Assembly (NCBI GenBank): GCA_023512375.1
Contig: JAILZS010000004.1
Location: 18,036 to 82,035 of the forward strand
Direction: 5' to 3'
DNA length: 64,000 nucleotides
Source: Bacillota bacterium
GTDB taxonomy: Bacteria > Bacillota > Sulfobacillia > JAJZYS01 > JAILZS01
The position numbers and the translations under genes were made by a program. The notes beneath the pieces were generated by a model. The model was not told the DNA's origin, ran no database searches, and saw nothing but the letters and a program-made list of their open reading frames with translations. This document shows, piece after piece, positions 22,061 to 42,129 of the stretch; the first letter of the stretch is position 1, and the number at the start of each line of letters is the position of its first letter.

Positions 22061-22070
22061 GGACGGAAAC

Positions 22071-22086
22071 TGGCACGAAACTCGCA
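22071..22086 (+). promoter_or_regulatory. Candidate sigma-54 (-24/-12) promoter of the ABC importer operon
   Basis: TGGCACGAAACTCGCA matches TGGCACG-N4-TTGCW at 15 of 16 defined or spaced positions (TCGCA for TTGCA). It starts 11 nt after the dnaB stop. AGGGAGG is at 22101-22107 and the ATG at 22118. Confidence 0.6.
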
Positions 22087-23689: not shown

Positions 23690-23720
23690 CGTAGGTGGCG
23701 CACCAGCGGGCGGCGAGGGG

Positions 23721-24749
23721 GTGGGGAGGACGGCGGGATACGGGGCGTACGCGGCGAGACGGCTCGGTTACGGCGTGGTGCTCGTGGTGGGCATCACCCT
23801 CGTGGCCTTCGTCCTCACGCACCTCGTGCCGTCCAACCCGGCCCTGGTGTACGCGGGACTCCACCCCAACCCGGCGCAGATCGCCCGCGCCCGGCAGATC
23901 CTCGGCCTCGACAAACCCCTGTACATGCAGTACCTGTTGTTCCTGCGCGGCCTGGCCACAGGGGCGTGGGGCATCTCGATCACCACCCACGGCAGCGTGT
24001 TCCAGAACGTGATGACGTTCCTGCCGCCCACCCTGGAACTCGTCTTCTTCGCCACCCTGGAATCGATGGTCCTCGGCGTCCTCCTCGGCGTTTGGGCGAG
24101 CGAGCGCCCGGACGGCGTGGCGGACGTGGCCGTACGAGTGCTGGGCGCCGGTCTGGTGAGCATGCCGGCCTTCTGGCTGGCCCTCCTCCTGCAGATCGTC
24201 TTCTTCGGCCAGCTCCACCTGCTTCCCCTCACGGGCGAGTACGGCGGCGCTTACGTCCTCACCGCCCGCACCATCACCGGCTTCCCCCTTCTGGACGCGG
24301 CCCTCAGCCACCAATGGGGGCTCGTGGGCGACGAGCTGCGCCACCTCGTCCTGCCCAGCCTGGCCCTTGCGGCCTACTCCATCGGCCTCGTGGCGCGCAT
24401 GACGCGGGCGACGATGCTCGACGCCCTCGGAACGGACTACATCCGCCTCGCTGTGGCCAACGGCGTCCGCCGCCGCCGCATCTACTTCCGCTACGCCCTC
24501 AAGAACGCCATCGCGCCCACCCTGACCGTCCTCGGCCTCACCTTCGCCTACTCCCTCACCGGCGACTTCTTCGTGGAGCAGATCTTCTTCTGGAACGGGC
24601 TTGGGTCGTACAGCGTGCACGCCATCGACAACCTCGACATCGCCGCCGTCATGGGCGTCCTCGTGGTGGTCTCCCTCGCCTACACGGTGGTCAACCTCGC
24701 GGTCGATCTCATCCGGGCGCTGTTCGATCCGCGCCTCCTGGTCGAGTAG
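23721..24749 (+). CDS. ABC transporter permease (DppB/OppB-like)
   Basis: ..YAARRLGYGVVLVVGITLVAFVLTHLVPSNPALVYAG..; EAA-type loop ..YIRLAVANGVRRRRIYFRYALKNAIAPTLT. Confidence 0.9.
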   Translation: MGRTAGYGAYAARRLGYGVVLVVGITLVAFVLTHLVPSNPALVYAGLHPNPAQIARARQILGLDKPLYMQYLLFLRGLATGAWGISITTHGSVFQNVMTFLPPTLELVFFATLESMVLGVLLGVWASERPDGVADVAVRVLGAGLVSMPAFWLALLLQIVFFGQLHLLPLTGEYGGAYVLTARTITGFPLLDAALSHQWGLVGDELRHLVLPSLALAAYSIGLVARMTRATMLDALGTDYIRLAVANGVRRRRIYFRYALKNAIAPTLTVLGLTFAYSLTGDFFVEQIFFWNGLGSYSVHAIDNLDIAAVMGVLVVVSLAYTVVNLAVDLIRALFDPRLLVE

Positions 24750-24774
24750 CCGTGCGTTGGGGAGGGGATGGGAG

Positions 24775-25782
24775 GTGGGCGTGAGCCAGCCGGTCTTGGC
24801 CGTGCGCGACCTCTCCGTCCAGCTCGAGGGGCGCGCGGGCACCCTCAACCTCCTCGACCGCGTCGCGCTCACCGTGGCGCGCGGCGAGGTGGTGGCGGTG
24901 GTGGGGGAGACAGGCAGCGGCAAGACGCTCACTGGCATGGCGGCGCTCGGTTTCTTCCCCGCCCGAGCCCGCGTCCAGGGGAGCGTGCGCGTGGACGGCG
25001 TCGAGCTCGTACCGCCGACGCCGCAGGCACTGGCCGCGGTGCGCGGTCGGCGCGTGGCCGTCGTGCCCCAAAATCCCTCCACCGCCCTCAACCCGGTGTT
25101 CACGGTCGGCCAGCAGCTGGGGGAGCTTCTCCTCACCCACAGGCGGCTCAGGTCGCTCCGCGAGCGACGCGAGGCGGCGCTCTCCCTCTTGCGGGAAGTG
25201 GAGCTGCCGCGGCCGGCGGCACTCCTGAACGCCTACCCGCACGAGCTGTCGGGCGGGATGCAGCAGCGTGTGCTCATCGCCATGGCGCTGGCGTGCGAGC
25301 CGGAGCTCGTCGTCGCCGACGAGCCCACGACCGCCCTGGACGCCACCACCCAGGCCCAGATCCTGCGCCTGGTCCTGCGCCTGCGCGCCGAGCGCGGCCT
25401 CGCCTTGCTCTGGATCACGCACGATCTGGGCGTGGCGGCGCACCTGGCCGACCGCGTCGTCGTCCTGTACGCCGGCAAGGTGATGGAGGACGGCCCCGTG
25501 GCGGCGGTACTCGGCTCCCCACGCCACCCGTACACGCGGGCGGTGATCGACAGCCTGCCGGGCGGTGGACGCCGGGTGCGCGACATCCGCAGCCTGCCCG
25601 GCGACCTACCCAGCCCAGCGGCGCTGCCGGCCGGGTGCCGCTTCCACCCCCGCTGCCCCATGCGCTTCGACCCGTGCGCCGGGACGGAGCCACTTCTGCG
25701 CCTGGTGGGCGACGGGCACGCCGTCGCCTGCCATCGCTACGATGCGCCTTCGACCACGGCGGGCGGTGCCCCCTTGCCATGA
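24775..25782 (+). CDS. ABC transporter ATP-binding protein (DppD/OppD-like)
   Basis: Walker A GETGSGKT, signature LSGGMQQR, Walker B LVVADEPTTALD, C-terminal oligopeptide-type Cys motif ..GCRFHPRCP... The start is GTG 24775 or 24781. Confidence 0.9.
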   Translation: MGVSQPVLAVRDLSVQLEGRAGTLNLLDRVALTVARGEVVAVVGETGSGKTLTGMAALGFFPARARVQGSVRVDGVELVPPTPQALAAVRGRRVAVVPQNPSTALNPVFTVGQQLGELLLTHRRLRSLRERREAALSLLREVELPRPAALLNAYPHELSGGMQQRVLIAMALACEPELVVADEPTTALDATTQAQILRLVLRLRAERGLALLWITHDLGVAAHLADRVVVLYAGKVMEDGPVAAVLGSPRHPYTRAVIDSLPGGGRRVRDIRSLPGDLPSPAALPAGCRFHPRCPMRFDPCAGTEPLLRLVGDGHAVACHRYDAPSTTAGGAPLP

Positions 25783-26750
25783 CGGAGGTCCTCTCGCTGC
25801 GCGGCATCTCCCACGCCTTCGGCGGGCGCGGGCGGGAAGGGGCTGTATGGGCGCTGCGCGACGTGGACCTGACGGTGGCCGGGGGCGAGACCGTCGGCGT
25901 GGTGGGCGAGTCCGGCTCGGGCAAGAGCACCCTCGGCCTCGTGGCCGCCGGCCTCGTGCGGCCGACGGCGGGCGAGGTCCGGTTCGAGGGCCGGCCCCTG
26001 GATCCGGCGCGGCTGTCGGGACGGGTGCAGATGGTCTTCCAGGACCCGGTCTCCTCCCTCGACCCGCGCATGACCGTGGAGGAGATCCTGCTCGAACCCC
26101 TCGCGGCCCTCGGGCGGGGGCGGCGGGAGGAGTGGCGCGAGCGCGCCGTCGCCCTCCTGGAGCGGGTGGGCCTGGGGCGGGAGCACCTTCCCCGCCGACC
26201 CGGTCAGTTCAGCGGAGGCCAGTGCCAACGCATTGCCATCGCCCGGGCCATGATCACCCGCCCCCCGTGCGTCATCCTGGACGAGCCCACCTCTTCTCTC
26301 GACGTGATCGTGCAGGCGCGCGTGCTCCATCTGCTCGAGGACCTCAAGGAGGAGTTCGGCACCGCCTACGTGTTCATCTCCCACAACCTGGCGGTGGTGG
26401 AGGCGGTGGCCGACCGCATCGTCGTGCTCTACCGCGGCCGGGTGGTGGAGTCCGGCCCTACCTCCGCCATCCTGGCGGCGCCGCTCCACCCCTATACGCG
26501 CGCCCTGGCCGCCGCCGTCCTCGACGTCGACTCTTGGCGGCGGCGCGAGGCGCCGACCCCGCCGGCGGGGGAGACCGCCGCATCGCCGACCGTCCCCCCG
26601 CCCGAGCACGGCTGCGCCTACGCCCCGCGTTGCCCGCTGGCCGTAGACGCCTGCCGGACGGCGGTTCCCGCCCTGGTGCCCACGCGGGACGGCCGCCGCG
26701 TCGCCTGTCACGTCCTCGCCCCGGCTGCATCCGAGATCCGAACCGTCTGA
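25779..26750 (+). CDS. ABC transporter ATP-binding protein (DppF/OppF-like)
   Basis: MTEVLSLRGISHAF..; Walker A GESGSGKST, signature FSGGQCQR, Walker B VILDEPTSSLD. ATGA overlap with the previous ATPase. Confidence 0.9.
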   Translation: MTEVLSLRGISHAFGGRGREGAVWALRDVDLTVAGGETVGVVGESGSGKSTLGLVAAGLVRPTAGEVRFEGRPLDPARLSGRVQMVFQDPVSSLDPRMTVEEILLEPLAALGRGRREEWRERAVALLERVGLGREHLPRRPGQFSGGQCQRIAIARAMITRPPCVILDEPTSSLDVIVQARVLHLLEDLKEEFGTAYVFISHNLAVVEAVADRIVVLYRGRVVESGPTSAILAAPLHPYTRALAAAVLDVDSWRRREAPTPPAGETAASPTVPPPEHGCAYAPRCPLAVDACRTAVPALVPTRDGRRVACHVLAPAASEIRTV

Positions 26751-26767
26751 CCGAGAGGGGGTGCGGC

Positions 26768-27685
26768 ATGGCCGCCCTCGTCCGCCCCGACCCTCGGCGG
26801 CGCGCCCGTCTCGCCGACGCCCCGCTGGCGCGCGACCTCCTCGGCCTGGCCCGAGACCTAAGCCCGTTGGGGCGATGGGTCGCCGTCGCCTGCGCTGCCT
26901 TCCTTCTCCTCGTCGTCCTGGCCGCCGTGCTGGCGCCTTGGCTCTCGCCCTACCCGGCCCAGGGCGCGGGCCAGTCCGACATGCTCACCCTGCTCCAACC
27001 CCCCTCGCCTGCGCACCTCCTGGGCACGGACGACGAGGGGAGGGACATCCTCAGCCGTCTCCTGTACGGGGCGCGGCCGTCGCTCGTGGCTGCCTTCGTC
27101 GTGGTGGCCACGGCCATCGTCCTGGGTTCGCTCGTGGGCGCCGCTGCGGGCTACCTGGGCGGCGCGGTGGAGCAGGTCCTCATGCGCATCACCGACTTCT
27201 TCCTGGCTTTCCCCTCCCTCCTCCTGGCGATCGTCATCGCCACCATCATCGGCCCCAGCCTTCAGAACGTCATCGTTTCCCTCGCCGTCACCTGGTGGCC
27301 GTGGTATGCCCGCCTCGTGCACGCGCAGGCGGGCACCCTGCGCCAGGCGGCCTTCGTGCGCTCGGCCCGGCTCTCCGGCGTGCGCGGCCTCGCCATGCTC
27401 GTACGCCACATCATCCCCAACGCCCTGACGCCGGTGGTCGTGCAAGGGACGAGCGACCTGGGCAGCGTGATCATCTCCGCCGCCGGCCTGAGCTACCTCG
27501 GGCTCGGGACGCAGCCCCCGCAGGCGGACTGGGGCTCGATGGTGAGCCAAGGACAGCAGTACATCCTGGCGCAGTGGTGGTACGTGACCTTCCCCGGCTT
27601 GGCCATCCTGCTTACCGCCATGGCCTTCAACCTCCTCGGCGACGCGTTCCGCGACCTCACCGACCCATCGGTGCGCCGAACCTGA
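26768..27685 (+). CDS. ABC transporter permease (DppC/OppC-like)
   Basis: The last 305 codons of ORF 25565..27685 read ..HLLGTDDEGRDILSRLLYGARPSL..FVRSARLSGVRGLAMLVRHIIPNALTPVV.. This is an unusual order (B-D-F-C) but an intact gene. Confidence 0.9.
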   Translation: MAALVRPDPRRRARLADAPLARDLLGLARDLSPLGRWVAVACAAFLLLVVLAAVLAPWLSPYPAQGAGQSDMLTLLQPPSPAHLLGTDDEGRDILSRLLYGARPSLVAAFVVVATAIVLGSLVGAAAGYLGGAVEQVLMRITDFFLAFPSLLLAIVIATIIGPSLQNVIVSLAVTWWPWYARLVHAQAGTLRQAAFVRSARLSGVRGLAMLVRHIIPNALTPVVVQGTSDLGSVIISAAGLSYLGLGTQPPQADWGSMVSQGQQYILAQWWYVTFPGLAILLTAMAFNLLGDAFRDLTDPSVRRT

Positions 27686-28889: not shown

Positions 28890-30179
28890 GTGAGCCGCGG
28901 GGGACCGCCGGACGGCCGCACGTACTGGAAGGCGAGCGCAACCGCCTGGTCCCTGCCGCCCGCCGAGGCGCCCCGCCGCGCCGACGTGGCGGTGGTGGGT
29001 GCCGGTTTCACGGGCCTTTCCGCCGCGTACCACCTCGCCCTGGCGGGGGCGTCGGTGGCGGTGTTCGAGGCGGGGGAAGTGGGGGAGGGGGCGAGCGGCC
29101 GAAACGGCGGGCAGGTCCTCCCGGGCTACGACCGCGACTACCCCGAGCTGGTGGAGCGGCTGGGCCTCGCCCGCGCCCAGGCCATGTGGCGGCTGTCGCT
29201 CTCCGCCATCGAACGCATGGAGGCGATCATGGCGCGCGAGGGCATCGAGTGCGGGTGGGAGGCGTACGGCCACCTGGAGGCGGCGACCACGGCCGCCCAG
29301 CGCGACGCCCTGGCGCGCGCCGGCGACGCCCTGGCGCGCGACCTCCAGCACCCCACCCGCCTGTTGGGGCCGGCGGAGATGGAGGCGGCGGTCGGTTCGC
29401 CCTTCTATATCGCCGGGCTCGAGTTCCCGGCCGCTCGCGCCTTCCACCCCCTGCTCTACGCTCGAGGGTTGGCGGCAGCGGCCGCGCGCAGGGGGGCGGT
29501 CATCCTGCAGGGTAGGCGGGTCACGGCGGTGCATCGGCGGGACGGGGGGTACGCCGTGGCGTGGGGCGAGGGGCGGACGTCGTGCCGAGAGGTGATCGTG
29601 GCGACCAACGCCTACGTGCCGCCCTTCGCGCCCTGGCTGCGCCGCCGCATCTTGCCCGTGACCAGCACCGTCGTGGCGACGGCGCCTCTGGCTCCCGGGT
29701 ACGCAGCCCGCATCCTGCCCGGGCGGCAGACGCTCTCCGACCTGAAGACGCCCATGTACTACTTCCGGGTCACGGCCGACGCTCGCCTCGTGTTCGGCGG
29801 CGGCACGGGCGAGGAGGGGCGCTCGCTGGTGCGCGTCTTCCCCTACCTCGAGGGGACGCGGATCGACTACCGCTGGCATGGGCGGGTAGCTGTTTCGGCC
29901 GACTGGCTGCCCCACATCGGCCGCACGCCCGAGGGGTGGCTTTACGCCGCGGGCTACACCGGCCACGGCGCCGCCTTTTCCACGGAGGCGGGCGCCATGC
30001 TCGCCGCGCTGGCCTTGGGGGAGGGTACGGACGATACCGCCACCTTGGGGCCGTTCGCCGCCTTGCCCTTCCCCCCCATGGCCCTCCTCGGCCAGCATGG
30101 GCGGGTGGCCCGCATGGTGCGCGCCTACCTGCGCCTGCGCGAGCGCCTGGCGGCGTATGCGCACCGTCCAGGAGGATGA
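28890..30179 (+). CDS. FAD-dependent oxidoreductase (DAO family, gamma-glutamylputrescine-oxidase-like)
   Basis: ..ADVAVVGAGFTGLSAAYHLALAGASVAVFEAGEVGEGASGRNGG (dinucleotide fold)..GYTGHGAAFS.. GTG 28890 follows GGGGAGG. The ORF is open from 27939, but the upstream part is antisense to the DMT gene. Confidence 0.8.
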   Translation: MSRGGPPDGRTYWKASATAWSLPPAEAPRRADVAVVGAGFTGLSAAYHLALAGASVAVFEAGEVGEGASGRNGGQVLPGYDRDYPELVERLGLARAQAMWRLSLSAIERMEAIMAREGIECGWEAYGHLEAATTAAQRDALARAGDALARDLQHPTRLLGPAEMEAAVGSPFYIAGLEFPAARAFHPLLYARGLAAAAARRGAVILQGRRVTAVHRRDGGYAVAWGEGRTSCREVIVATNAYVPPFAPWLRRRILPVTSTVVATAPLAPGYAARILPGRQTLSDLKTPMYYFRVTADARLVFGGGTGEEGRSLVRVFPYLEGTRIDYRWHGRVAVSADWLPHIGRTPEGWLYAAGYTGHGAAFSTEAGAMLAALALGEGTDDTATLGPFAALPFPPMALLGQHGRVARMVRAYLRLRERLAAYAHRPGG

Positions 30180-30363: not shown

Positions 30364-31731
30364 ATGCGACGGTGCGACGCCTCCGCGGTGCTCGAGGAGA
30401 CCGCCCGCATCCTGTCCTACGTCGAGGGCGGGCGACTGCAACCCGACGAGGCCGAGCGCCTTACGCGCGAGGCGGCCGAGCTGTACGAGGCGCACGTGAA
30501 CCGTGCCATGCTCGAGCATCGCAAGTGGGCATCGAGCGACTTCCGCGTGGCCGAGTGGGAGGACGGCGGCGCCGTGTTCTATGACACGCGCGGCCGTCGC
30601 TATCTCGACTGCTTGGGGGGCTACGGCATCTACACCTTGGGCCACCGCCATCCGCGGGTGGTGGAGGCGGTCCGCCGCCAACTCGACAAGCAGGCCCTGC
30701 ACAGCCAAGAGCTCATCGACCCCCTGCGCGCCTACCTCGCGTACCTCCTGGCCATGGTCGCGCCCGGCGACCTCGCGTACGCCTACTTCACGAACAGCGG
30801 CGCGGAGACCGTGGAGATGGCGATCAAGCTCGCCCGCCTGGCCACGGGCAGGGCGGGGATCGTGGCGGCGGTGAACGGCTTTCATGGCAAGACGATGGGA
30901 GCTCTCTCCGCCACGGGGCGAGGGACGTACCGCCAGCCGTACCTGCCCCTGGTTCCGGGCTTCTCGCACGTCCCGTTCGGCGACGCCCGCGCCATGGAGC
31001 GGCACGTGCACGGGCTCATCGCCGTGGGGGAGGCGCCGGCGGCCGTCCTCCTGGAGCCCATCCAGGGCGAGGGCGGCGTGCACGTGCCCCCCGACGATTA
31101 CCTTCCCGCCGTGCGCCGCCTGTGCGACGAGACCGGGACCCTCCTCATCCTGGACGAGATCCAGACCGGCATGGGACGCACGGGGGCGCTGTTCGCCTGC
31201 GACCACTGGGATGTGGCGCCCGACGTCCTGTGCCTGGCCAAGGCGCTCGGCGGGGGGGTGATGCCCATCGGCGCCATCGTGGCCCGGCCGCACCTGTGGA
31301 AACGCATGGAGGAGAACCCCTTCCTCCTCGGATCGTCCACCTTCGGCGGCAATCCGCTGGCCTGCGCCGCCGCCATCGCCGCCCTGGACGTCACGCTGCG
31401 CGAAGACATCCCCGGCCAGGCGCGGCAAAAGGGCGAGCGCCTGCTCGCGGGCTTGGCGGTGCTGCGCCGCCGGTATCCCGAGGTGCTGCTCGACGTACGC
31501 GGGCGGGGCCTTCTCATCGGCATGGAGTTCGCCGACGACCGGGCGGGCTACCGGGTGGCGAAGGGGCTGTTCGACCAGGGGATTTTGGTGGGCGGCACGC
31601 TGAACAACGCGCGCGTGGTGCGCATCGAGCCGCCGGCGGTGATCGGGGAGGAAGACATCGACCGCGTGCTCGAGGCGCTGGAGCGCGTGTTCGCGGCGGA
31701 GCGGGCGGGAGCGGCGCCTGCCGGGCGCTGA
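30364..31731 (+). CDS. Class-III aminotransferase (putrescine/ornithine aminotransferase-like)
   Basis: ..DCLGGYGIYTLGHRHPRVV..FTNSGAETVEMAIKLAR..FHGKTMGALS..LILDEIQTGMGRTG..DVLCLAKALGGG (PLP Lys). ATG 30364 follows AAGGGAGGG. Confidence 0.85.
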   Translation: MRRCDASAVLEETARILSYVEGGRLQPDEAERLTREAAELYEAHVNRAMLEHRKWASSDFRVAEWEDGGAVFYDTRGRRYLDCLGGYGIYTLGHRHPRVVEAVRRQLDKQALHSQELIDPLRAYLAYLLAMVAPGDLAYAYFTNSGAETVEMAIKLARLATGRAGIVAAVNGFHGKTMGALSATGRGTYRQPYLPLVPGFSHVPFGDARAMERHVHGLIAVGEAPAAVLLEPIQGEGGVHVPPDDYLPAVRRLCDETGTLLILDEIQTGMGRTGALFACDHWDVAPDVLCLAKALGGGVMPIGAIVARPHLWKRMEENPFLLGSSTFGGNPLACAAAIAALDVTLREDIPGQARQKGERLLAGLAVLRRRYPEVLLDVRGRGLLIGMEFADDRAGYRVAKGLFDQGILVGGTLNNARVVRIEPPAVIGEEDIDRVLEALERVFAAERAGAAPAGR

Positions 31732-31743
31732 CGCCCCTATACG

Positions 31744-33234
31744 TTACGCTTCGGGCGGGTCGCCCAGGACCGTGAAGTGCCAGGGCTTGACCACGTCGTC
31801 GGCGGTGTTCGACATCACGTGCTTGATGTGGGTGTATTCCTCCACGGCGTAGGCGGACAGGTCGTGCCCGATGCCGCTGTGCTTCATGCCGCCGTGCGGC
31901 ATCTCCGATACAAGCGGCAGGTGGTCGTTGATCCACACCTCGCCGAAGCGCAGTCCTGCGCTCACGCGCAGGGCGCGGGCGTGGTCGCGCGTCCACACGG
32001 AGGAGGCGAGACCGTAGCGCACGTCGTTGGCCAGGGCGAGGGCCTCGGCTTCGGAGTCGAAGGGGAGGACCACCACCGCGGGACCGAACACCTCTTCCTG
32101 CACGATCTCGCTCTCCTGGCGTGCGCCCAGAACGAGCGTGGGCGGAACGTAGAGCCCCCCTGGACTGGCGGGGGCGCCGCGGGGTTGGCGCACCTCGGCG
32201 CCCTGCGCGCGGGCGCGCGCGAGGAAGCCCGTGACGCGGTCGAACTGTTCGCGCGACACGAGGGGTCCCATGTCCGTGGCAGGGGAGAGGGGGTCGCCCA
32301 TGCGCACCTCGCCGAGCTTCGCCTCCAAGGCGGCCACGAAGGCGTCGTAGAAGGGGCGCTGTACATACACCCGGGTGGCGGCGGTGCAGTCCTGCCCGCT
32401 GTTCACCGTCGCCGCCACCGCCGCCGCCTGCACCGCCGCCGCCTGGTCGGCGTCGGCGAACACCAGCATGGGCGCCTTGCCGCCCAGCTCCAGATGGACG
32501 CGCTTGAGGCCGGCGCCCGCTGCCGCGGCCACCCTGGCCCCCGTCTCGGTGGCGCCGGTGAGCGACACCATGGCGACGTCCGGATGGGCGACGAGGCGCT
32601 CGCCTACGGCGTCGCCGCCCGCCACGACGTTGAGGACGCCAGGCGGTATCCCCGCCTCGAGGGCCAGGCGCCCCAGCTCCAGGCTGGTGAGCGGGGTCTG
32701 GGGCGCGGGCTTGAGCACCACCGTGTTGCCGGCGGCAAGGGCCGGGCCCACCTTCCACACGGCCATCATGAGGGGGTAGTTCCACGGGGCGATGGAGGCC
32801 ACGACCCCCACCGGCTCGCGCCGGATCCAGCTCGTGTGCACGCCGTCGTACTCGGCCGCGGGCCGCCCCTCCGCATGCCTGGCGGCGGCGGCGAAGAAGC
32901 GCAGGTTGTCGACGGCGAACACCAGGTCGGAGTGGCGCGCGAGCTTGATGGCCTTGCCCGTGTTCTCGCTCTCCAAGCGCGCCAGGCGCTCGGCGTCGCG
33001 TTCCACGAGGTCGGCGAGGCGCCACAGACGCAGGCTTCGTTCGCCCGGGGGGAGGCCCGACCACCGCCCGTCGGCGAAGGCCGCCCGGGCGGCGGCCACC
33101 GCCCGGTCGACGTCCTCTTCCCCCGCCTCGGGCACCTCGGCCACCACTTCGCCGCTGTAGGGGCTACGCACCTGCGCCCGACCCCCTGCGGCGGCGCCGA
33201 CCCATTCCCCGTCGATCACCAGCCCGTACGCCAT
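31744..33234 (-). CDS. NAD-dependent aldehyde dehydrogenase (aminobutyraldehyde-DH-like)
   Basis: The last 496 codons of ORF 31744..34212 read ..[30 protein letters not shown]..; LELGGKAP; ..[14 protein letters not shown] (catalytic Cys); EEVFGPV-type motif EEVFGPAV. Confidence 0.9.
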
Positions 33235-33248
33235 ACGCCTTCCCTCCC

Positions 33249-34478
33249 CTAGCCGGCTCCCCCGCGCGATCTCGGCGCGAGGGGGGTGGCCGTCCTGAGC
33301 CGCGTCTCCCACACGTATACCGGCATGCCCCAGGCCGGCAGGCGCTCGATCCAGGGGTTGGGATCGAGCTGTTCCGGCACGAGTGCGCCGCGTTCGCGGA
33401 TCGTGCCGTCGGCGATCATCTCCACCGCCAGGACCGGCGGCGTGCCCGCCTGCCAGACCGTGACGTTCGCCCCCGCCAGGCGGCGCGCGTCCGCGTGGGA
33501 GGAGAGGGTGTAGATGTACTGCTCCACCTCCTGACCGTCCTTCACCCCCTTCACCCACGTGCCGACGCAGGAGTGCCCTTCGAGTTCCCCCGCCAACCTC
33601 GCCGGTTCGGGCAGGAGCGCCGCCACGACCTTGCGCGGCACCACGGGGTGGCCGTCCACGAGCACCGGCTCTTCCCGGTCGAACCCGAGCTTCTTGAGCA
33701 CCCGGAGGACGGCCACGTATTCGTCGGAGAGCGCGTACTTGAACTCGCACCGCTTGAGCTCCGGCCAGAAGAGAGGGATGGTGCCGGTCTCCTCGTGCGA
33801 CACGCTGCGCACCGTGAGCGGCCCCACCGGGCGGGGGAACTCGAACACCTCCACCCCCGTGTCCAGGGGCTCGCCCTGCACGAAACGCCCGTCGCGATAG
33901 CTGAGGGGCGGCTGCAGGCACTCCTCGATGCTGGTCTCGGGAGAGAAGGGTAGGGCGAACTCGTGCCCGCGCAGGACGGAGTTGTCGCCGTCGTACACCA
34001 CCACCTCGTCCATGCGGTCGAGGTCCTCGGATGCGTACCGGGCGAAAATGTTCGTGAGGCCGGGATCGACCCCGATCCCCAGCAGCGCGATGAGACTCCG
34101 GGCGCGGAAGCGCTCGTCGTAGCGCATCTGTTGCTGCACCGTGACCAACCCCGGCAGCTCCACAGGCCCGTCCGAGGCCATGTCCAGGTAGTGCGCGCCC
34201 GCCTCCAGGCATGCTTCCATGACCGTCAGGTTGTGGCGGGGGAGGCCGGCGTGGACCACCGCGTCGTGCCCTGCCGCCGCCCGCGCCACCTGCTCGCCGT
34301 CGCTCGCGTCCACGGCCGCCGCCGAGGCCGAGACGGTGCTGCGGATCGCCTGCACCACCTCATGGGCGCGCTCGGGCCGCACGTCGGCCACCGTGACGTG
34401 CTCCACGCCCTGCGCCCGTGCCAGACCCCTGGCGGCCACCTCGCCTACGCCGCCCGCTCCCAATACCAGGACCCGCAT
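33249..34478 (-). CDS. Saccharopine dehydrogenase family NAD(P)-binding protein
   Basis: [20 protein letters not shown].. (Rossmann)..[16 protein letters not shown]..; 409 aa, the Sacchrp_dh N+C layout. Substrate not inferable. Confidence 0.85.
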
Positions 34479-34539: not shown

Positions 34540-35865
34540 TCAGGCCGCCTCCCCCGCCTCCGCTAGGGCGCCGGCGAGGCGCTCGGCGAACAGCCGGGTC
34601 TCTTCGTCGCTCAGAATGAGCGGCGGCAGGAGCCGGACCACGTTGTCGTACACCCCCGCCCGCATGAGGAGCAGCCCGCGCCGGCGCGCCGCCGCCACGA
34701 CGGCGAGGGCCAGACCCGGGTTGGGTGAGCCGTCCGGGTGCACGAACTCCAGCCCGATCATGGCGCCCACACCCCGCACGTCGCCCAGGCCGGGGCAGCG
34801 CGGGCGCGCCGCCAGGGCGGCGGCGCGCAGGCGCTCGCCGATGGCGCGGGCGCGCGCCGGCAGGTCCTCCCGTTCCAGCACGTCGAGTACTGCGAGGGCG
34901 GCGGCGCAGGCCACGGGGTTGCCGGCGAAGGTGCCGCCCAGCCCGCCCGGGACCGGTGCGTCGATGATCTCTGCCCGCCCCACGACTGCCCCCAGAGGTA
35001 GGCCGCCTGCCAGGCTCTTGGCCAACAGGACGATGTCGGGCACGACGCCCATCTGCTCCACCGCGAAGAGGCTGCCGGCGCGTCCCATGCCGCATTGCAC
35101 CTCGTCTGCCACCAGGACGGCGCCGGTCTCGTCGCACAGCCGCCGCAGCCCTTGGAGGAAGGCCGGCGGCATGGGCACGAAGCCGCCCTCCCCCTGCACG
35201 GGCTCGACGATCACGGCGGCCAGGTTGTCCTCACCGATCCCCACGGCCACCTGGCGGCGGACCGCGTCCAGGCACTCCACGGCGCACGTCGTGGGCTGGC
35301 GGCCGACGGGGCAGCGGTAGCAGTAGGCGCTGGGAGCGCGGTGCACGTCGGGGGCGAACGGGGCGAAGCCCTCCTTGTACCCGTGCGCCTTGTCGGTGAG
35401 GGTGAGGGCCATGTAGGTCCGGCCGTGGAACGCCTGCTGGAAGGCCAGCACGGCGGTGCGCCGGGTGTGGGCGCGGGCGATCTTGATCGCGTTCTCCACC
35501 GCCTCGGCGCCGGTGTTCACGAGGAGCACCTTCTTGGCGAAGTCCCCCGGCGCCCGTCGGGCCAGCGCCTCGGCGAGCTCGATGTAGGGGGCGTTCCACG
35601 CCGTGTGCGCGCAAGTGTGTAGGAGCGTGCGGGCCTGGGCCTCGATCGCCGCCACCACCGCAGGATGGCCGTGGCCCACGTTCATCACCCCCAGGCCGGC
35701 CATGCCGTCCAGGTATTCGCGCCCCTCGCTGTCCCACAGCCACGCCCCCTGGGCGCGCACGATCACGAGGTCGTGCGTCGTGGCCACGCCGCGCGCCACG
35801 CTGCGCGCCCGGCGCTCGCTCCAGCCGGCGGCCTCCGCCGATCGCGGCGCCGTCCCCTGCTCCAT
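34540..35865 (-). CDS. Class-III aminotransferase (4-aminobutyrate aminotransferase-like)
   Basis: ..ARGVATTHDLVIVRAQGAWLWDSEGREYLDGMAGLGVMNVGHGHP..FHGRT..LVADEVQCGMGRAG..IVLLAKSLAGGLPLG. I chose Met18 (35865) because GAGGAGGGG precedes it and the sigma-54 motif ends at 35927. Confidence 0.85.
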   Translation of the reverse strand: MEQGTAPRSAEAAGWSERRARSVARGVATTHDLVIVRAQGAWLWDSEGREYLDGMAGLGVMNVGHGHPAVVAAIEAQARTLLHTCAHTAWNAPYIELAEALARRAPGDFAKKVLLVNTGAEAVENAIKIARAHTRRTAVLAFQQAFHGRTYMALTLTDKAHGYKEGFAPFAPDVHRAPSAYCYRCPVGRQPTTCAVECLDAVRRQVAVGIGEDNLAAVIVEPVQGEGGFVPMPPAFLQGLRRLCDETGAVLVADEVQCGMGRAGSLFAVEQMGVVPDIVLLAKSLAGGLPLGAVVGRAEIIDAPVPGGLGGTFAGNPVACAAALAVLDVLEREDLPARARAIGERLRAAALAARPRCPGLGDVRGVGAMIGLEFVHPDGSPNPGLALAVVAAARRRGLLLMRAGVYDNVVRLLPPLILSDEETRLFAERLAGALAEAGEAA

Positions 35866-35926
35866 CGGCGACCCCTCCTCGGAAGCGTCCGCCAGACATG
35901 GCGCCCCGGCTTCCATCCCCCCGGTA

Positions 35927-35942
35927 TGCGAGAATCGTGCCA
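35927..35942 (-). promoter_or_regulatory. Candidate sigma-54 (-24/-12) promoter of the gabT-like operon
   Basis: The minus strand reads CC-TGGCACGATTCTCGCA-TA, that is TGGCACG-N4-TCGCA, the same core as at 22071. It lies about 60 nt upstream of the chosen start codon. Confidence 0.65.
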
Positions 35943-36076
35943 GGAGGCTTCCCAGAGTCCGTCGGAAAGGCGCACCGGCTCCGCCCTACCCGCGGCGTAG
36001 GCGAGCCCGAGGCGCCTCACCATGAGGCACCGGGCAATCGAGCCGGGATGATGGCAGGGCGAGCCGACGGCGGGCG

Positions 36077-36562
36077 CTAGTCGAGGTGGAGGGCGCCGCG
36101 CCGCGCCTTGGCGATGTAGAGGATCTGGCCGCCGTGTTCGGACGTGTGGGCGAGCGCGCGCACCAGCGTGTCGCGCAGCGTCGCCTCCTCCCCCTGGATG
36201 GTGCGGCGGGCGTCCAGGAGGGAGGGATCCTTCTGCACGCGCTCGAGCGTTGCCCGCAGGGGGGAGAACCCCTCCCGCAGGCGCTCCAGGAGAACGGACG
36301 CAGGCGGGTGTGAGCGGTCGGCGAACTCGGCCGCGCGGTCGCGGTCGTCGGCTTCGCCGCCGAAGCCCGCCAGGAAGCGCTGGCGCAGGTTGCCCCTCAG
36401 GTGCAGCACGAGGTTGGCGATGCTGTTCGACTCCTCGTTCGGCCGCCAGCCCAGGTCCTCGGGGTCGAGAGGCGCGATCGCCGCAGTGAGCCGGCGCTCG
36501 AGTCCGTCCACCACCGCCAGCGCCGTCGCCGCCCAGCGCGCCCCTGCATCGTCGGGCATCAT
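36077..36562 (-). CDS. DinB-family (DUF1572-like) protein
   Basis: 161 aa: ..WRPNEESNSIANLVLHLRGNLRQRF..ALAHTSEHGGQILYIAK is a four-helix DinB pattern with His residues. It starts 43 nt downstream of the activator gene. Confidence 0.75.
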   Translation of the reverse strand: MMPDDAGARWAATALAVVDGLERRLTAAIAPLDPEDLGWRPNEESNSIANLVLHLRGNLRQRFLAGFGGEADDRDRAAEFADRSHPPASVLLERLREGFSPLRATLERVQKDPSLLDARRTIQGEEATLRDTLVRALAHTSEHGGQILYIAKARRGALHLD

Positions 36563-36605
36563 CTCTCTCCTCCCGTCATGCGAGTCGGTCTTCGGCAGGG
36601 TCGCC

Positions 36606-37853
36606 CTAGCCGGCGCCGTGGGCCAGGGTGAGGTCGCCTGCCCCGATCGAGGTTCCGGTGGCCAGGACGGCGGCGCGCGTCACCAGGTGCAAGAGCTCGC
36701 GCACGTTGCCGGGCCACGGTTGGGCGATCAGCCACTCCCTGGCGTCCGGGGTGAGGGTGCGGTGGATGCCGTACCGCCGGCCGACCTCGGCCAGGGCGCG
36801 CTCCGCCAGGGGGAGGATGTCCTCGCGCCGCTCGGCCAGGGGAGGGATGGCGACCGGCATGGTGCTGAGGCGGTAGTACAGGTCGGCGCGGAACCGGCCC
36901 TCGGCCACGAGCCGGGCGAGCGGCCGGTGGGTGGCGACGATGAGGCGCACGTCGGCACGAACCGGCCGCCGGCCTCCCAGGGGGATGAACTCGCCTGTGT
37001 CGGCGAACGAGAGGATCTTCGCCTGCAGGGCCAGGGGAAGTTCGCCGATCTCGTCCAGGAGGACGGTGCCGCCCTGGGCGCTGCGCAACAGGCCTGGGTG
37101 GCCTTCGCGCCGGGCGCCGGTGTAGGCTCCCGGCTCGTAGCCGAACAGCTCCGCCTCGAACAGCCCCTCGGGCAGGCTGGCAGGCTGGATGGCCAGGAAG
37201 GGCCCTTCCCGGCGCGGGCTCCAGGCGTGGATGCGGCGGGCGAAGTGGGTCTTTCCCACACCGGTGGCGCCCGTGAGGAGCATCGGCACGTCGAGCGCCG
37301 CCGCCCGGCGCATGACCTCGACCGCGGCGCGCAGGGCAGGGGAGGCGTACAGCGTCGCCTCCTCTTCCTCCCCCTCGGCCGGCGCGTTCGCTCGGCGCCC
37401 GGCCGCCGCTGGACCGTCCGGCTGCCCCAACGTCGCGGCGAGGAGCTCGTCGAGGTCGCGCGAGTTGCACACCACCCGCACCACCTCCCCCCGCTCGTCG
37501 CGCACCGGTCGTGCCGTGACCACGAGACGGCGGCCGAGGCGCGTGCGCTGGCGCACCGTCACGGTCTCCCCCTGGGCGAGGGCGAGCCGGGTGGCGGAGG
37601 GGGCGTAGACCCCCCGCCGTTCCAGCTCACGCACCGAAACCCCGATGAGTTCCTCCGCCGCCATGCCGTACAGGCGCTGGCTGGCGTCGCTCACCCACAG
37701 CGTGCGCCCCTCGCCGTCGGTCACGTAGATCTCGTCATAGGAATGGGCGAGCGCGCCGTCCCCCACCCACGCCGGCGCACCCTCCGCCCGCCGTCCCGTG
37801 CCGCCCGCCAGGCCGGTGGGTTCCGGCTTCGCCACGCTACCCCCGCCCCGCAT
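36606..37853 (-). CDS. Sigma-54-dependent activator, PAS + AAA+ domains, no C-terminal HTH
   Basis: The last 415 codons of ORF 36606..39329 give a PAS-like domain (YDEIYVTDGEGRTLWVSDASQRLYGMAAEELIG), Walker A GATGVGKT, ELFGYEPGAYTGA (GAFTGA loop), Walker B LLDEIGE and PGNVRELLHLV. The stop comes 28 residues later. Confidence 0.85.
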   Translation of the reverse strand: MRGGGSVAKPEPTGLAGGTGRRAEGAPAWVGDGALAHSYDEIYVTDGEGRTLWVSDASQRLYGMAAEELIGVSVRELERRGVYAPSATRLALAQGETVTVRQRTRLGRRLVVTARPVRDERGEVVRVVCNSRDLDELLAATLGQPDGPAAAGRRANAPAEGEEEEATLYASPALRAAVEVMRRAAALDVPMLLTGATGVGKTHFARRIHAWSPRREGPFLAIQPASLPEGLFEAELFGYEPGAYTGARREGHPGLLRSAQGGTVLLDEIGELPLALQAKILSFADTGEFIPLGGRRPVRADVRLIVATHRPLARLVAEGRFRADLYYRLSTMPVAIPPLAERREDILPLAERALAEVGRRYGIHRTLTPDAREWLIAQPWPGNVRELLHLVTRAAVLATGTSIGAGDLTLAHGAG

Positions 37854-37940
37854 CCGCCTCGCCGCCCGCTCCCGGCGGCGGTCGGGAGGGGTTCCGCGGC
37901 ACGCGAGCGAAACCCTGCACGGTTGCGGGGGGCGGGTACG

Positions 37941-39224
37941 GTGTCCGCGCGGGCGGAGCTGGGGACGACGGTGGGCGTGGGCGTCGAGCCGCAGACGGCG
38001 CTCTTCCTGAAAGTCCTGGCCTTGCCGCGGGCTGGGCTCGGGGCGTGGCTGGTCGAGGCCGTGGAGCGAAACCCGTTCCTCGCCTGGCGGGGCGAGGGCT
38101 TCGACGGATGGGGCGCGGCGGCGGCCGACGTGCCCTCGGCCCGCGCCGGAGCGGGCGGGCTGTCGGGTTCGCCCGCCGCGGAGCGCGTGCGCCACCTGAT
38201 CGAACAGCTCCCTCCGCTCGACGCCGCCAGCCGCCGCATCGCCTGCGCCCTGGCGGCGGCCGTCGACGTCGACGGCTACCTCGGCTGGCCGCTCGAGGTG
38301 GTGGCCCGGCGCCTGGGGGTGGCCACGCGTGCGGTGGCCGCCGTGCACCGGCGCCTTTTGGCCTGTCTGGAGCCAGCCGGCGTGCTGGCGCGGGACCGGC
38401 GCGAGGCGGCGGCGGTCATCCTGCGCCGTCGCCCGCAGCATGCCGCTGAGCGCGACGCTCTCGCCGCCCTGAAGGCCGGCCTGGAACCGGACGTCGGGGC
38501 GCGTGCCCTCGCCGCCGCCATGGGGTGGCCGCCGGCGCGCGCCCGGGCGGCGGCGTGCTGCCTCGAGTCCCTGCCGGCCGAACCTTGGCCCCGGGAGGGG
38601 GTGCCCGCACCGCCGGCTCTCCCCGACTTCCGTCTCGGCCCGGACGGCGAGGTGGCGGTGGAGGTGCGGGCTCGCTCCTGGGTGGAGCTCGACCGCGCGT
38701 ACGCCCGCCTGCCGGCGCGCGCCTTGGCCGCCGCCGCTGGAGAGGCGGCATTCGTGCGCGCACACCGGCGCGAGGCGCACCTCGTCCTGACCGCGCTGGC
38801 GCGGCGCGACGCGACGATGGCGCGCGTCGGCCAGGCCCTCCTGGGAGGGCAGGCGGCGTTCGCGCGCCTTGGGCCGCGCGCCATCGTGCCGCGGCGGATC
38901 GAGGACGTCTCTCGCCACCTGGGCCTGCACCCGTCCACCGTGTGGCGGGCGGCGCAGGACAAGTGGGTGGCCACCCCGCACGGCACGCTTCCCGTCAGGG
39001 CGTTCGTCGGCCGGCGCGTGCGCGACGGCGGGACGGTGGGAGCGGCGGCCCTGGCGGCGTCGCTGCGCGCCATCGTCGCCGACGAGCCCCCCGAGCGACC
39101 GCTGACGGACGGCGAGCTGGCGGCCCGCCTGTTTGCCCTGGGGATGGCGGTGGAACGCCGCACCGTGGCCAAGTACCGGGCCCTGGCGGGCATCCCTCCC
39201 TCGCGCGCCCGCCGCCGGGCGTAG
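37941..39224 (+). CDS. rpoN: RNA polymerase sigma-54 factor (short, divergent)
   Basis: The last 427 codons of ORF 36144..39224 give region I-like EPQTALFLKVLALPRAGLGAWLVEAVERNPFL, core-binding ..VDVDGYLGWPLEVVARRL..LEPAGVLARDRRE.., HTH ..VSRHLGLHPSTVWRAAQDKWVATPHGTLPVRAFV and the RpoN box ERRTVAKYRALAGIP. Confidence 0.85.
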   Translation: MSARAELGTTVGVGVEPQTALFLKVLALPRAGLGAWLVEAVERNPFLAWRGEGFDGWGAAAADVPSARAGAGGLSGSPAAERVRHLIEQLPPLDAASRRIACALAAAVDVDGYLGWPLEVVARRLGVATRAVAAVHRRLLACLEPAGVLARDRREAAAVILRRRPQHAAERDALAALKAGLEPDVGARALAAAMGWPPARARAAACCLESLPAEPWPREGVPAPPALPDFRLGPDGEVAVEVRARSWVELDRAYARLPARALAAAAGEAAFVRAHRREAHLVLTALARRDATMARVGQALLGGQAAFARLGPRAIVPRRIEDVSRHLGLHPSTVWRAAQDKWVATPHGTLPVRAFVGRRVRDGGTVGAAALAASLRAIVADEPPERPLTDGELAARLFALGMAVERRTVAKYRALAGIPPSRARRRA

Positions 39225-39271
39225 CCGGTCGGCACGGCCACGGCAGACAGGCCGGTTGCGGGCGACCCATG

Positions 39272-39302
39272 CCGTCCCCGTCCGGCGGGCGACGGGGGAC
39301 GG
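39272..39302 (+). terminator. GC-rich hairpin downstream of rpoN (possible terminator, no U-tract)
   Basis: CCGTCCCCGTC-cggcgggc-GACGGGGGACGG forms an 11-bp stem with one bulged G. It begins 48 nt after the rpoN stop. Confidence 0.35.
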
Positions 39303-39880
39303 GTGGGTGCCCCAGCCTCGCCTTTGCACCGCCGAGAAGGTTCCACCCGCCCCCTCGTCGACCTGCGGGCGCGAGGCGCCCCTCTACGCTCGTGCCTTGG
39401 GGGGGCCGGGGGCGCGCTGCACCCCCGTGGCGAAGGCCACGCTGCCCGTCGCCGCCTCCCCGCCTCGATGCGGCACGTGCCCTCACCGCGACCGGCGGTG
39501 TGGACGGCTGTCAGGCGGCCTGCGCGAGGTGGTGGCCGTGCTCTCCATCGCCGCCAGGGGGCCTCCGTCGAGGGATCGGAACCGCGGGTACTGGGCAATC
39601 GGCATCGAAGACGACGCCCACCAAGGGAGGGAGGCCGAACCCGTCGCCTCTGTCGCCGGGGTGGGCGGCCTGCCGGCCGTCGGCGGCGCGCCGTCGAGCA
39701 AGACGGTGACCGGGGAGGTGTCTACCGGCGGGTTGTCGTCGACGTACACCCGATGGGCGTGAGACGGTCGGCGCGGCCTGCGGCGCCGGGCTCCCGGGAA
39801 CGGCGACGGCCCACGGCCCCGCGCAGGCCGTGGGGACGCGCCGCCCGGGACGGAATCACGCGGTCGTCCCGGAGGCCTCC

Positions 39881-40285
39881 TCAGGCGGCGAGGCCGCGCA
39901 CCGCCAGGTACAGGGCGAGGCCGACGCCGCCGGCACCGACCAGGACGGCGAGGGCCACGTCCCAGCCCGGCGCGGTGACATCGCGCCCGCGGGCGATCGC
40001 CTCCCGCCGCCGGGCGTAGCGCGCGGCCCCGAACAGGACGACGCCGGCGCCAAGGGCGGTGATGGCGGCGCCGATGAGGACGTCCAGCCCCCTTGGGGCG
40101 GGCGCCGCGCCGCGGGCGGAGAGCTCGGCGAGGAAGAGGGCGAAGCGGGCGACGACGAAGCCGAAGGCCATCACCGCCACGCCCGTGCGCACGTGGGCGA
40201 GGAAGGTGCGCTCGTTGGCCAAGAACAGGGAGGCGCGCCCGCGTCGGCGCGCCCGCGTCGGCGCATGCGGCTTGGGCCATGGCAT
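39881..40285 (-). CDS. DUF202 (YidH-like) membrane protein
   Basis: ..LFLANERTFLAHVRTGVAVMAFGFVVARF.. is the DUF202 signature, with three hydrophobic segments. Confidence 0.75.
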   Translation of the reverse strand: MPWPKPHAPTRARRRGRASLFLANERTFLAHVRTGVAVMAFGFVVARFALFLAELSARGAAPAPRGLDVLIGAAITALGAGVVLFGAARYARRREAIARGRDVTAPGWDVALAVLVGAGGVGLALYLAVRGLAA

Positions 40286-41280: not shown

Positions 41281-42129
41281 CTAGCCCACGACCATGGAGG
41301 CGGGAAGGAGGTCGGCGATGTACGGCGGCAGGACGAAGGCGGCGCGGTGCACGGCGGGCGTGTACCAGCGCGTGCCGGTCGGCGTCCAGGGGTTCTCCGG
41401 CTGTAAGGGGTCGGGCCCGAGCGAGCCGACGATGAACGTGAAGTAGCCGCCCGGATAGGTGGGGATGGTGGCGGAGAACAGCCGCGCCAGGGGGAAGCGG
41501 GAGGCGACGTCGGCGCTCACGTCGCGTACGACCTCGGGGTTGTAGAACGGGGCGCCGGTGTGCTGGATGTACAGGCCGCGGGGACGCAGCGCCTGCCGTA
41601 CGGCGGCATGGAACTCGGGGGTGTAGAGGACCTTGCCGGGACCGTCGCCTTCCGGGTCGGTGGCGTCCACCAGGATGACGTCGTATTCGGCATCGTGCCG
41701 GCTCAGGAAGGCGGCGCCGTCCTCGAACCGCACCTCGAGGCGGGGGTCGTCGAGCGCGGCCGTGTGGGCGGGGAGGAAGCGCCGCGCCGCCTCCACCACC
41801 GCGGGGTCGATCTCCACCATGGTGGCGGCGCGCACCGTCGGGCAGCGGAGGACCTCGCGCGCGGTGCCGCCGTCGCCGCCCCCGACGATGAGCACCCGCT
41901 CCGGCGCGGGGTGCGTGACCAGGGCCACGTGGGCCAGCATCTCGTGGTAGATGAACTCGTCGCCCGCGGTCGTCTGCATGATGCCGTCGAGCACGAGGGA
42001 CGGGCCGAACTGCTCGGTGTCGATGACCTGGATGTCCTGGTAGGCGGAGCGAACGGAGTAGAGGCAGCGCCGCACCTTCCAACGCAGCTGGTGGTGCGCG
42101 GAGGCGGCCTCGTCGAACCACAGGGCCAC
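41281..42129 (-). CDS. speE: Spermidine synthase (polyamine aminopropyltransferase)
   Basis: ..SAYQDIQVIDTEQFGPSLVLDGIMQTTAGDEFIYHEMLAHV..VLIVGGGDGGTAREVL..MVEIDPAVV..VILVDATDP.. GTG 42129 follows GAGGAGGTGA. Confidence 0.9.
   Translation of the reverse strand: MALWFDEAASAHHQLRWKVRRCLYSVRSAYQDIQVIDTEQFGPSLVLDGIMQTTAGDEFIYHEMLAHVALVTHPAPERVLIVGGGDGGTAREVLRCPTVRAATMVEIDPAVVEAARRFLPAHTAALDDPRLEVRFEDGAAFLSRHDAEYDVILVDATDPEGDGPGKVLYTPEFHAAVRQALRPRGLYIQHTGAPFYNPEVVRDVSADVASRFPLARLFSATIPTYPGGYFTFIVGSLGPDPLQPENPWTPTGTRWYTPAVHRAAFVLPPYIADLLPASMVVG

Follow-up and report, generated by a model that had tools for sequence, protein, structure and literature searches.

We analyzed a 64,000-nucleotide stretch of a Bacillota genome (contig JAILZS010000004.1 of assembly GCA_023512375.1, positions 18,036 to 82,035; hereafter the window), in which a gene for a divergent sigma-54 factor and a gene for a bacterial enhancer-binding protein (bEBP) are transcribed away from each other. 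The bEBP combines a PAS sensor with an AAA+ domain and ends without a DNA-binding domain. Two sigma-54 promoters, P1 and P2, precede an importer operon (operon A) and an aminotransferase operon (operon B), respectively, and the linkage of sigma factor, activator and target operon is conserved in a distant relative. In our interpretation, these genes probably form a dedicated sigma-54 circuit for the catabolism and uptake of amines of the putrescine/gamma-aminobutyric acid (GABA) type, in which the activator would work from solution without an enhancer. The coordinates of all features are collected in Table 1.

The rpoN-like gene encodes a complete but very divergent sigma-54. Pfam recognizes the DNA-binding domain (Sigma54_DBD, 3.3e-34, residues 271-426) and the core-binding domain (Sigma54_CBD, 2.2e-11, residues 84-244; 44.3 bits against a cutoff of 22.9), which bears out an earlier note on this DNA that had named the gene from its RpoN box, its helix-turn-helix (HTH) and the motif ERNPFL (residues 42-47). 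The Sigma54_AID family (PF00309) stays below its cutoff of 23.8 bits, both for the whole protein (14.1 bits) and for the isolated N-terminus (18.1 bits). The sub-threshold alignment sits in the right place (residues 17-47 against profile positions 14-44), and region I is present but degenerate. The NCBIfam model TIGR02395 (rpoN_sigma) also does not reach its cutoff (174.1 against 277.35 bits), in an alignment that runs over the full length (residues 22-425 against profile positions 14-434). In the alignment to residues 129-475 of the Escherichia coli/Klebsiella pneumoniae sigma-54, the protein retains the arginines that correspond to E. coli R383 and R455/R456, and the ERRTVAKYR string of the RpoN box is invariant across the sigma-54 alignment. 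The AlphaFold2 (AF2) model (predicted local distance difference test, pLDDT, of 83) has all expected domains folded, including two confident region-I helices (residues 17-43), a disordered region II (53-77), the core-binding domain (pLDDT above 90), the extra-long helix (ELH), the HTH and the RpoN domain.

The earlier note had also presented the length of 427 aa and the glutamine-poor region I as peculiarities of this protein. Both values are correct (region I has one glutamine, against a median of six), but neither is exceptional, since 9 of the 151 nearest sigma-54 representatives have at most 430 aa and 13 of the 151 have at most two glutamines in region I. A clade-specific tryptophan replaces serine beside the R383 equivalent, a change shared by one of 158 other sigma-54 proteins, and it coincides with C instead of T at promoter position -14. 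Altered DNA specificity is unsupported: the protein has the usual arginines in its RpoN box and the usual residue at the R383 position, and its promoter belongs to the canonical type.

The activator gene starts 87 bp from the sigma-54 gene, in the divergent layout described earlier. Translation and Pfam confirm the PAS sensor and the motifs that had been read from the sequence (Walker A GATGVGKT, GAYTGA, Walker B LLDEIGE and GNVREL), as well as the tail of 28 residues beyond GNVREL and the distance of 43 bp (36563-36605) from the stop codon to the next gene. Neither HTH_8 nor HTH_50 nor any other HTH family of Pfam matches the activator at E<=0.01, and Response_reg does not match its N-terminus, where the domain is PAS. 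The alignment to Aquifex NtrC1 in the PDB ends where the crystallized AAA+ construct ends. In the AF2 model (pLDDT 86.5), a PAS domain (residues 30-141) and a disordered linker (143-164) are followed by an AAA+ domain that finishes in a lid helix at residue 413, and Foldseek superposes this AAA+ domain on NtrC1 and FlrC with a template modeling (TM) score of about 0.9 and 1.4-1.6 A. The FlgR model of NCBIfam (NF049963) matches only the AAA+ part, with 227 bits against a cutoff of 750. The GAYTGA form of the loop is a documented functional variant found in ordinary EBPs (PMC6615313, PMC4676750), and for this reason we rejected it as a sign of a special pairing with sigma-54.

The missing DNA-binding domain is real and does not result from a frameshift. 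The three frames past the activator stop contain nothing HTH-like, one of them entering the DinB/DUF1572 gene downstream. An identical activator is present on three independent Logan assemblies, and the relatives P0028 (92% identical) and P0029 (62%) terminate at the same place. When 102 homologues bearing GNVREL were compared, the tails of the three clade members were 28, 28 and 31 aa long, whereas the remaining 99 were at least 83 aa. The homologues outside the clade end in HTH_8, HTH_50 or an unannotated HTH, mostly the TyrR-type HTH_50, a type that was overlooked when the absence of a Fis-type HTH was first reported; both types are absent here. Given these tails and the HTH elsewhere, the DNA-binding domain was lost once, in the ancestor of the small clade. 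The AAA+ motifs are invariant across the three clade activators.

Relatives of the sigma-54 were collected in two ways that agreed, with a word-indexed search of 5.8 billion clusters and with HMMER run exhaustively against 1.84 billion representatives. Both returned the protein's own cluster (P0001, 91%) and one other sequence (P0147, 40-46% identical), after which the score drops from 703 to 191 bits; the clade amounts to two 50% clusters among the 1.84 billion representatives. No relatives were found among GTDB species representatives in a genome scan with clade-specific sigma-54 peptides, and metagenome scans with the sigma-54 and activator alignments gave no more clade members (best activator match 42%). 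Part of this rarity reflects sparse sampling, since the 90% clusters of S18 and SSB hold only this lineage.

The 91% relative (locus L001) shares the gene order of the window all the way from the FAD oxidoreductase gene to uppP and speE, and dnaA, rpsF, rplI and dnaB are on the same 47-kb contig as the sigma-54/activator cassette and uppP. The more distant locus, L005, again has the sigma-54 (40-46% identity) and an activator with GAYTGA and no DNA-binding domain (62%) as divergent neighbours, and the orthologues behind its promoter are the aminotransferase (68%) and the saccharopine-dehydrogenase-like protein (65%). Relative to the operon, the sigma-54/activator pair is inverted in L005 compared with the window; because it is retained all the same, the pair behaves as a regulatory unit. 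Between the window and L005, the sigma-54 has diverged faster than its neighbours (40-46% against 62-68%). The nearest sigma-54 genes inspected outside the clade (P0003, P0024) have no adjacent EBP.

The promoter motif CTGGCACGAnnCTCGCA occurs twice without a mismatch; by chance, 0.04 occurrences would be expected even if one mismatch were tolerated. One of the two sites, P2, is the promoter of the single target operon that the earlier note had proposed; the other, P1 (22070-22086), had been missed. The core of P2 is identical in L001 to L004, and the 16-nt core of P1 is identical to the site of L005, where TGGCACGAAACTCGCA lies about 20 bp after the sigma-54 stop and upstream of the orthologous aminotransferase. 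Altogether, every one of the five loci of the clade has the motif, whereas 80 unrelated loci fetched for DnaB all lack it. The -12 element of P1 and P2 reads CTCGCA, instead of TTGCA/T. A relaxed search for -24/-12 elements with two mismatches gave counts at chance level, and no further sites are claimed.

The surroundings of these promoters bear on the question of an enhancer. P1 begins 10 bp past the stop of dnaB, and in L005 about 20 bp separate the promoter from the sigma-54 stop. Both promoters thus adjoin the coding sequence before them, and no intergenic room is left there for an enhancer. A search for an upstream activating sequence shared by P1, P2 and the L005 promoter gave only chance-level 8-10-mers (e.g. 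GTGCGCCT) at inconsistent distances.

The gene content of operons A and B and of the DNA between them suggests a common metabolic theme, a predicted route from putrescine through 4-aminobutanal and GABA to succinic semialdehyde. The genes of the FAD-dependent amine oxidoreductase and the putrescine aminotransferase are located between the two operons, and neither a search nor the alignment with L001 revealed a -24/-12 element upstream of this gene pair. The PAS-AAA+ activator adjoins the gabT-type operon behind P2, which it is predicted from sequence to control. In Bacilli, sigma-54 is known to control gabT (PMC4279683, PMC12316311), and gabT is enriched among sigma-54 regulons there (PMC12316311). 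The genes for putrescine/GABA catabolism have a spermidine synthase gene (41281-42129, minus strand) at a distance of 2 kb, so that genes for polyamine synthesis and degradation are neighbours.

In the mechanism that we propose, RNA polymerase with the divergent sigma-54 would bind the near-identical promoters P1 and P2 and form closed complexes, as suggested by the conservation of these promoters and by the intact HTH and RpoN box. Until it senses a signal, either a small molecule or a redox change, the PAS domain probably keeps the AAA+ domain in check, by analogy with GabR of Bacillus thuringiensis. Once activated, the protein would assemble an AAA+ ring whose GAYTGA loops contact region I of sigma-54, and ATP would serve to open the promoter. 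As with FlgR and CtcC, its action would most likely need no upstream enhancer and take place from solution; specificity would then follow from the small number of sigma-54 promoters, and probably also of activators, that the cell has.

Since the activator has no DNA-binding domain, it must act either from solution or via a partner. We favour action from solution because of the precedents among activators without this domain, the promoters that abut coding sequences and the lack of a shared upstream motif. Isolated AAA+ domains can activate sigma-54 promoters promiscuously from solution, and the bEBP employed in a regulon study of Salmonella was reportedly an isolated AAA+ domain acting in this way. 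That study is described as defining the Salmonella sigma-54 regulon with a promiscuous, constitutively active bEBP (PMC3844500).

Several observations weigh against the proposed circuit. The Walker A motif GATGVGKT departs from the usual GESGxGKE. A 26-nt block upstream of P2 (GCCGCGGGT.AGGGCGGAGCCGGTGCGC, 35972-36000, minus strand) is conserved with L001 (8014-8041, minus strand) and could be a binding site for another factor; L001 has an insertion of 76 bp between the block and the promoter, and the block is absent upstream of P1. Other rpoN copies, EBPs or a DNA-binding partner may exist beyond the window. Only three lineages are known, and the comparative evidence is thin.

A different reading, to which we give a rather low probability, takes the window protein as the sole general-purpose sigma-54 of the cell, serving conventional activators encoded elsewhere. 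The adjacency would then be a lineage-specific accident, and the protein without a DNA-binding domain would either need a DNA-binding partner in a mixed ring, as FleT works with FleQ, or have no more than an auxiliary role. FleT has neither a regulatory (R) nor a DNA-binding (D) domain (PMC7175178, PMC3162934). Single copies are indeed the rule, as about 5% of genomes have more than one rpoN (PMC12316311) and each of the Clostridiales contains a single sigL (PMC6615313), and with a canonical-type promoter and standard residues in the RpoN box and at the R383 equivalent the protein could serve any ordinary sigma-54 promoter. However, the divergent pairing is kept in L005, despite the low identity of the sigma-54 and the inversion relative to the operon, and of the closest further sigma-54 genes that were inspected, none adjoins an EBP gene. 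In addition, no second sigma-54 and no second EBP were found within the 64 kb of the window, and the faster divergence of the sigma-54 is what would be expected of a very small regulon.

The dedicated circuit may also be imagined in a more extreme form, which we consider doubtful. It would be an insulated minimal circuit, built on a private sigma-54 that evolves fast, has a degenerate region I poor in glutamine and has adapted jointly with one activator, which is gated by PAS, carries GAYTGA and lacks a DNA-binding domain. Specificity would reside in the protein pair and a few promoters instead of enhancer DNA. The sigma-54 would perhaps be a second one without cross-talk to a housekeeping RpoN and its EBPs, and the clade-specific tryptophans in the HTH, which reads the -12 element, would perhaps be matched to CTCGCA.

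Another reading, which follows the portable module of the earlier note, sees a horizontally mobile accessory island that brings along a second sigma-54 and keeps it insulated from a housekeeping rpoN located elsewhere in the genome. The clustering of sigma factor, activator and targets would fit such an island, as would the occurrence of the pair in two different arrangements and the outlying position of the sigma-54 (below the TIGR02395 cutoff, with a sub-threshold AID, in two 50% clusters whose next match falls from 703 to 191 bits). The surrounding DNA makes this improbable. The GC content is about 73% throughout the window, and the values of 0.715-0.78 over 28-44 kb are within its general range. 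The gene list for 20-46 kb includes no integrase or transposase, and no repeat boundary was found. ARAGORN called a single 91-nt tRNA-Asp (39926-40016, minus strand), which lies inside the DUF202 coding sequence and is probably a false positive. The cassette is located about 30 kb from dnaA, between dnaB and uppP, and this region is collinear in the 91% relative; because the window carries the core set from gyrB to dnaB, we regard the cassette as oriC-proximal core DNA. Of the portable regulatory module that had been suggested, the regulatory unit stands, its linkage being kept at 40-46% sigma-54 identity, while its portability and its place in an accessory island are unsupported, with no mobility genes beside it.

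The rarity of the clade is no evidence of mobility either, because the lineage is deep and sparsely sampled; the best DnaB match among the GTDB representatives listed, a Bacillota metagenome-assembled genome, has 61% identity. The LonC protein of the window passes the equivalog cutoff of the NCBIfam model spore_lon_C, which points to an endospore-former-type Bacillota, and the contrast that had been drawn with a housekeeping rpoN arrangement is a proteobacterial notion that does not suit such a host. In Firmicutes, sigL is typically found near glycolytic genes (PMC3162934), which makes the context of the window sigma-54 unusual and alone is no proof of mobility. Finally, all homologues outside the clade carry a C-terminal HTH and their common ancestor with the clade must have had one, and yet it is very improbable that the activator gene is decaying or encodes a truncated protein unable to activate (for example as a pseudogene remnant or a dominant-negative modulator), or that the HTH is missing through an artefact of assembly or frameshift, given the same stop in four independent assemblies of the same sequence and in the 92% and 62% relatives, the invariant AAA+ motifs, the confident model that ends cleanly in the lid helix and the absence of an HTH in the downstream frames, with only 43 bp to the next gene.

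To our knowledge, all characterized sigma-54 activators without a DNA-binding domain are either phospho-receiver proteins (FlgR, CtcC) or a bare AAA+ domain (FleT). FlgR and CtcC are presumed to activate from solution without an enhancer, in hosts that have very few sigma-54 activators. The existence of such activators elsewhere, for which the earlier note had named FlgR, CtcC and FleT, is well documented (PMC7175178, PMC3162934, PMC7482065). FlgR of Helicobacter and Campylobacter and CtcC of Chlamydia, which make up group 5 of the bEBPs, resemble the window protein in having a regulatory domain and an AAA+ domain and in ending after the lid (PMC7175178, PMC3162934, PMC7482065). None of the five groups into which a 2020 review divides the bEBPs accommodates a PAS-AAA+ protein that lacks a D domain (PMC7175178). 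In contrast to the window activator, which is a one-component protein with a PAS sensor and no linked kinase, FlgR and CtcC belong to two-component systems, as response regulators whose phospho-receiver is phosphorylated by a cognate kinase. Their targets are flagellar or developmental genes, and no rpoN lies beside their own genes, whereas the window pair is associated with amine catabolism and includes the sigma-54 gene itself.

Another close parallel is GabR of B. thuringiensis, where sigL is not adjacent to gabR. GabR is a PAS-AAA+-HTH activator that drives gabT with SigL and whose PAS domain is inhibitory (PMC4279683). Like the window activator, it combines PAS and AAA+ domains and is encoded beside a GABA-aminotransferase operon with a -24/-12 promoter in a Bacillota host (PMC4279683). 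It differs in its C-terminal HTH and in its footprints on repeats upstream of gabT, whereas in the window neither an HTH nor a shared upstream repeat was found. The homologues of the window activator outside the clade (37-47% identity) are mostly of this PAS-AAA+-HTH type.

Specialized rpoN copies that are co-localized with a cognate activator and its targets include rpoN1-4 of Rhodobacter sphaeroides, nifR4 of Rhodobacter capsulatus and rpoN2-fleQ of Xanthomonas. Species with multiple rpoN copies include R. sphaeroides (up to four), Xanthomonas campestris, Bradyrhizobium japonicum and Rhizobium etli (PMC3162934, PMC12316311), and the copies of R. sphaeroides are functionally distinct (PMC12316311). 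These specialized proteobacterial copies are paralogues with a normal region I, and their activators mostly have a DNA-binding domain; in contrast, the window combines a Bacillota-like genome with catabolic targets. With canonical sigma-54 proteins (RpoN of E. coli and K. pneumoniae, SigL of Bacillus subtilis), the window protein shares the domain order (regions I and II, core-binding domain, ELH-HTH, RpoN box), a box of the ARRTVAKYR type, the R383 equivalent and a GG/GC promoter. It differs from them in its region I below the Pfam threshold, its region II of about 25 aa, the tryptophan beside the R383 equivalent and its score below the NCBIfam rpoN cutoff.

If the proposed circuit is correct, it would be a compact natural case of enhancer-independent one-component control of sigma-54, joined to a divergent sigma-54 and two recognizable promoters. 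Surveys of rpoN that demand Pfam matches to AID, CBD and DBD together (e.g. PMC12316311) would miss this clade. Orthogonal sigma-54 systems currently need engineering (PMC12096077); should the pair be orthogonal to standard RpoN and EBPs, it would provide synthetic biology with a ready-made three-part switch of sigma factor, activator and 17-bp promoter.

Table 1. Features of the window discussed in the text (window coordinates; res, residues of the encoded protein; nt, nucleotide positions)
Feature	Position	Strand	Evidence or remark
Sigma-54, divergent, 427 aa	37941-39224	+	Pfam CBD and DBD, sub-threshold AID, full-length TIGR02395 alignment, AF2
Sigma-54 region I	res 15-47 = nt 37983-38081	+	
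Sigma-54 region II, short, disordered	about res 53-77 (about 25 aa)	+	
Sigma-54 core-binding domain	res 78-244	+	
HPSTVWRAAQDKW within sigma-54 ELH-HTH	res 330-342 = nt 38928-38966	+	
Sigma-54 RpoN box ERRTVAKYRALAGIP	res 404-418 = nt 39150-39194	+	
Intergenic region between activator and sigma-54 start codons, divergent	37854-37940	.	87 bp
bEBP, 415 aa, no DNA-binding domain	36606-37853	-	Pfam, PDB alignment, AF2, Foldseek
Activator PAS	res 37-136 = nt 37446-37745	-	PAS_4 6e-11
Activator linker, disordered	res 143-164	-	AF2
Activator AAA+ sigma-54 interaction domain	res 170-334 = nt 36852-37346	-	Sigma54_activat (PF00158) 4e-55
GAYTGA loop	nt 37113-37130	-	
AAA+ lid	res 341-409 = nt 36627-36833	-	AAA_lid_14 2.7e-17; stop codon directly after
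Sigma-54 promoter P1 CTGGCACGAAACTCGCA	22070-22086	+	Exact match; begins 10 bp past dnaB stop, ends 32 nt upstream of start of substrate-binding protein
Sigma-54 promoter P2 CTGGCACGATTCTCGCA	35927-35943	-	Exact match; about 60 nt upstream of aminotransferase start codon
Operon A, five-gene Opp/Dpp-type ATP-binding cassette importer	22118-27685	+	Pfam, NCBIfam
Operon A family-5 substrate-binding protein	22118-23689	+	NCBIfam GsiB-like 1.5e-42, below cutoff
Operon A permeases	23721-24749; 26768-27685	+	Pfam BPD_transp_1, OppC_N
Operon A ATPases	24775-25782; 25779-26750	+	Pfam ABC_tran and oligo_HPY
FAD-dependent amine oxidoreductase (DAO)	28890-30179	+	
Putrescine aminotransferase	30388-31731	+	NF008570 622.7 bits, over cutoff of 612
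Operon B gene 1, class-III aminotransferase, GABA transaminase-like	34540-35865	-	Aminotran_3 5e-124; TIGR00700 GABAtrnsam 472 bits, just below cutoff of 507
Operon B gene 2, saccharopine-dehydrogenase-family oxidoreductase	33249-34478	-	Pfam Sacchrp_dh_NADP and Sacchrp_dh_C; weak similarity to carboxynorspermidine synthase
Operon B last gene, aminobutyraldehyde dehydrogenase	31744-33234	-	NF010000 653.5 bits, over cutoff of 615
DinB/DUF1572-family gene	36077-36562	-	Pfam DUF1572 7.5e-21; 43 bp downstream of activator
Replication-origin region of Bacillota-like chromosome	1-22060		gyrB, recF, dnaN, dnaA (4606-5991, -), rnpA, yidC, parA, rpsF-ssb-rpsR, rplI, lonC, dnaB

In the intergenic region between the two regulatory genes, a scan and inspection found neither a sigma-70-like consensus nor a correctly spaced -24/-12 element. 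A GGCACG...TGCA string at 37887-37908 was rejected as a sigma-54 promoter for its wrong spacing. Scans of 35800-39900 for sigma-70 promoters and terminators found nothing, a result that is uninformative at 75% GC, and no Rfam family matched anywhere in the window.

The DinB/DUF1572 gene is probably co-transcribed with the activator gene and occupies the same position in L001 to L004. In L005, the gene after the activator (5324-5800, plus strand) has a sub-threshold match to DinB_2 and no pairwise similarity to the DinB protein of the window. A small gene of the DinB superfamily thus directly follows the activator in both lineages, which may be coincidental or may mean that its product is a partner of the activator; with such an L005 counterpart, the case for DinB as a conserved partner is weak.

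On the other side of the cassette, about 650 bp between the sigma-54 stop and the DUF202 gene (39225-39880) are absent from the 91% relative L001. This segment holds a GC-rich hairpin just past the sigma-54 stop and an open reading frame of 77 aa (39529-39762), for which no Pfam match was found. In the replication-origin region, between an rsmG-like gene and parA, there are two out-of-frame fragments of a reverse transcriptase of the group-II-intron/retron type (8767-9297, plus strand; …GTPQGGPLSPVLANV and …RYADDFLVLF…); they fall in a lower-GC stretch of the region and look like a decayed reverse transcriptase. Finally, the segment 47681-49256 (plus strand) encodes a paired histidine kinase (HisKA_3) and response regulator (LuxR/GerE type), which are unrelated to the sigma-54 cassette.

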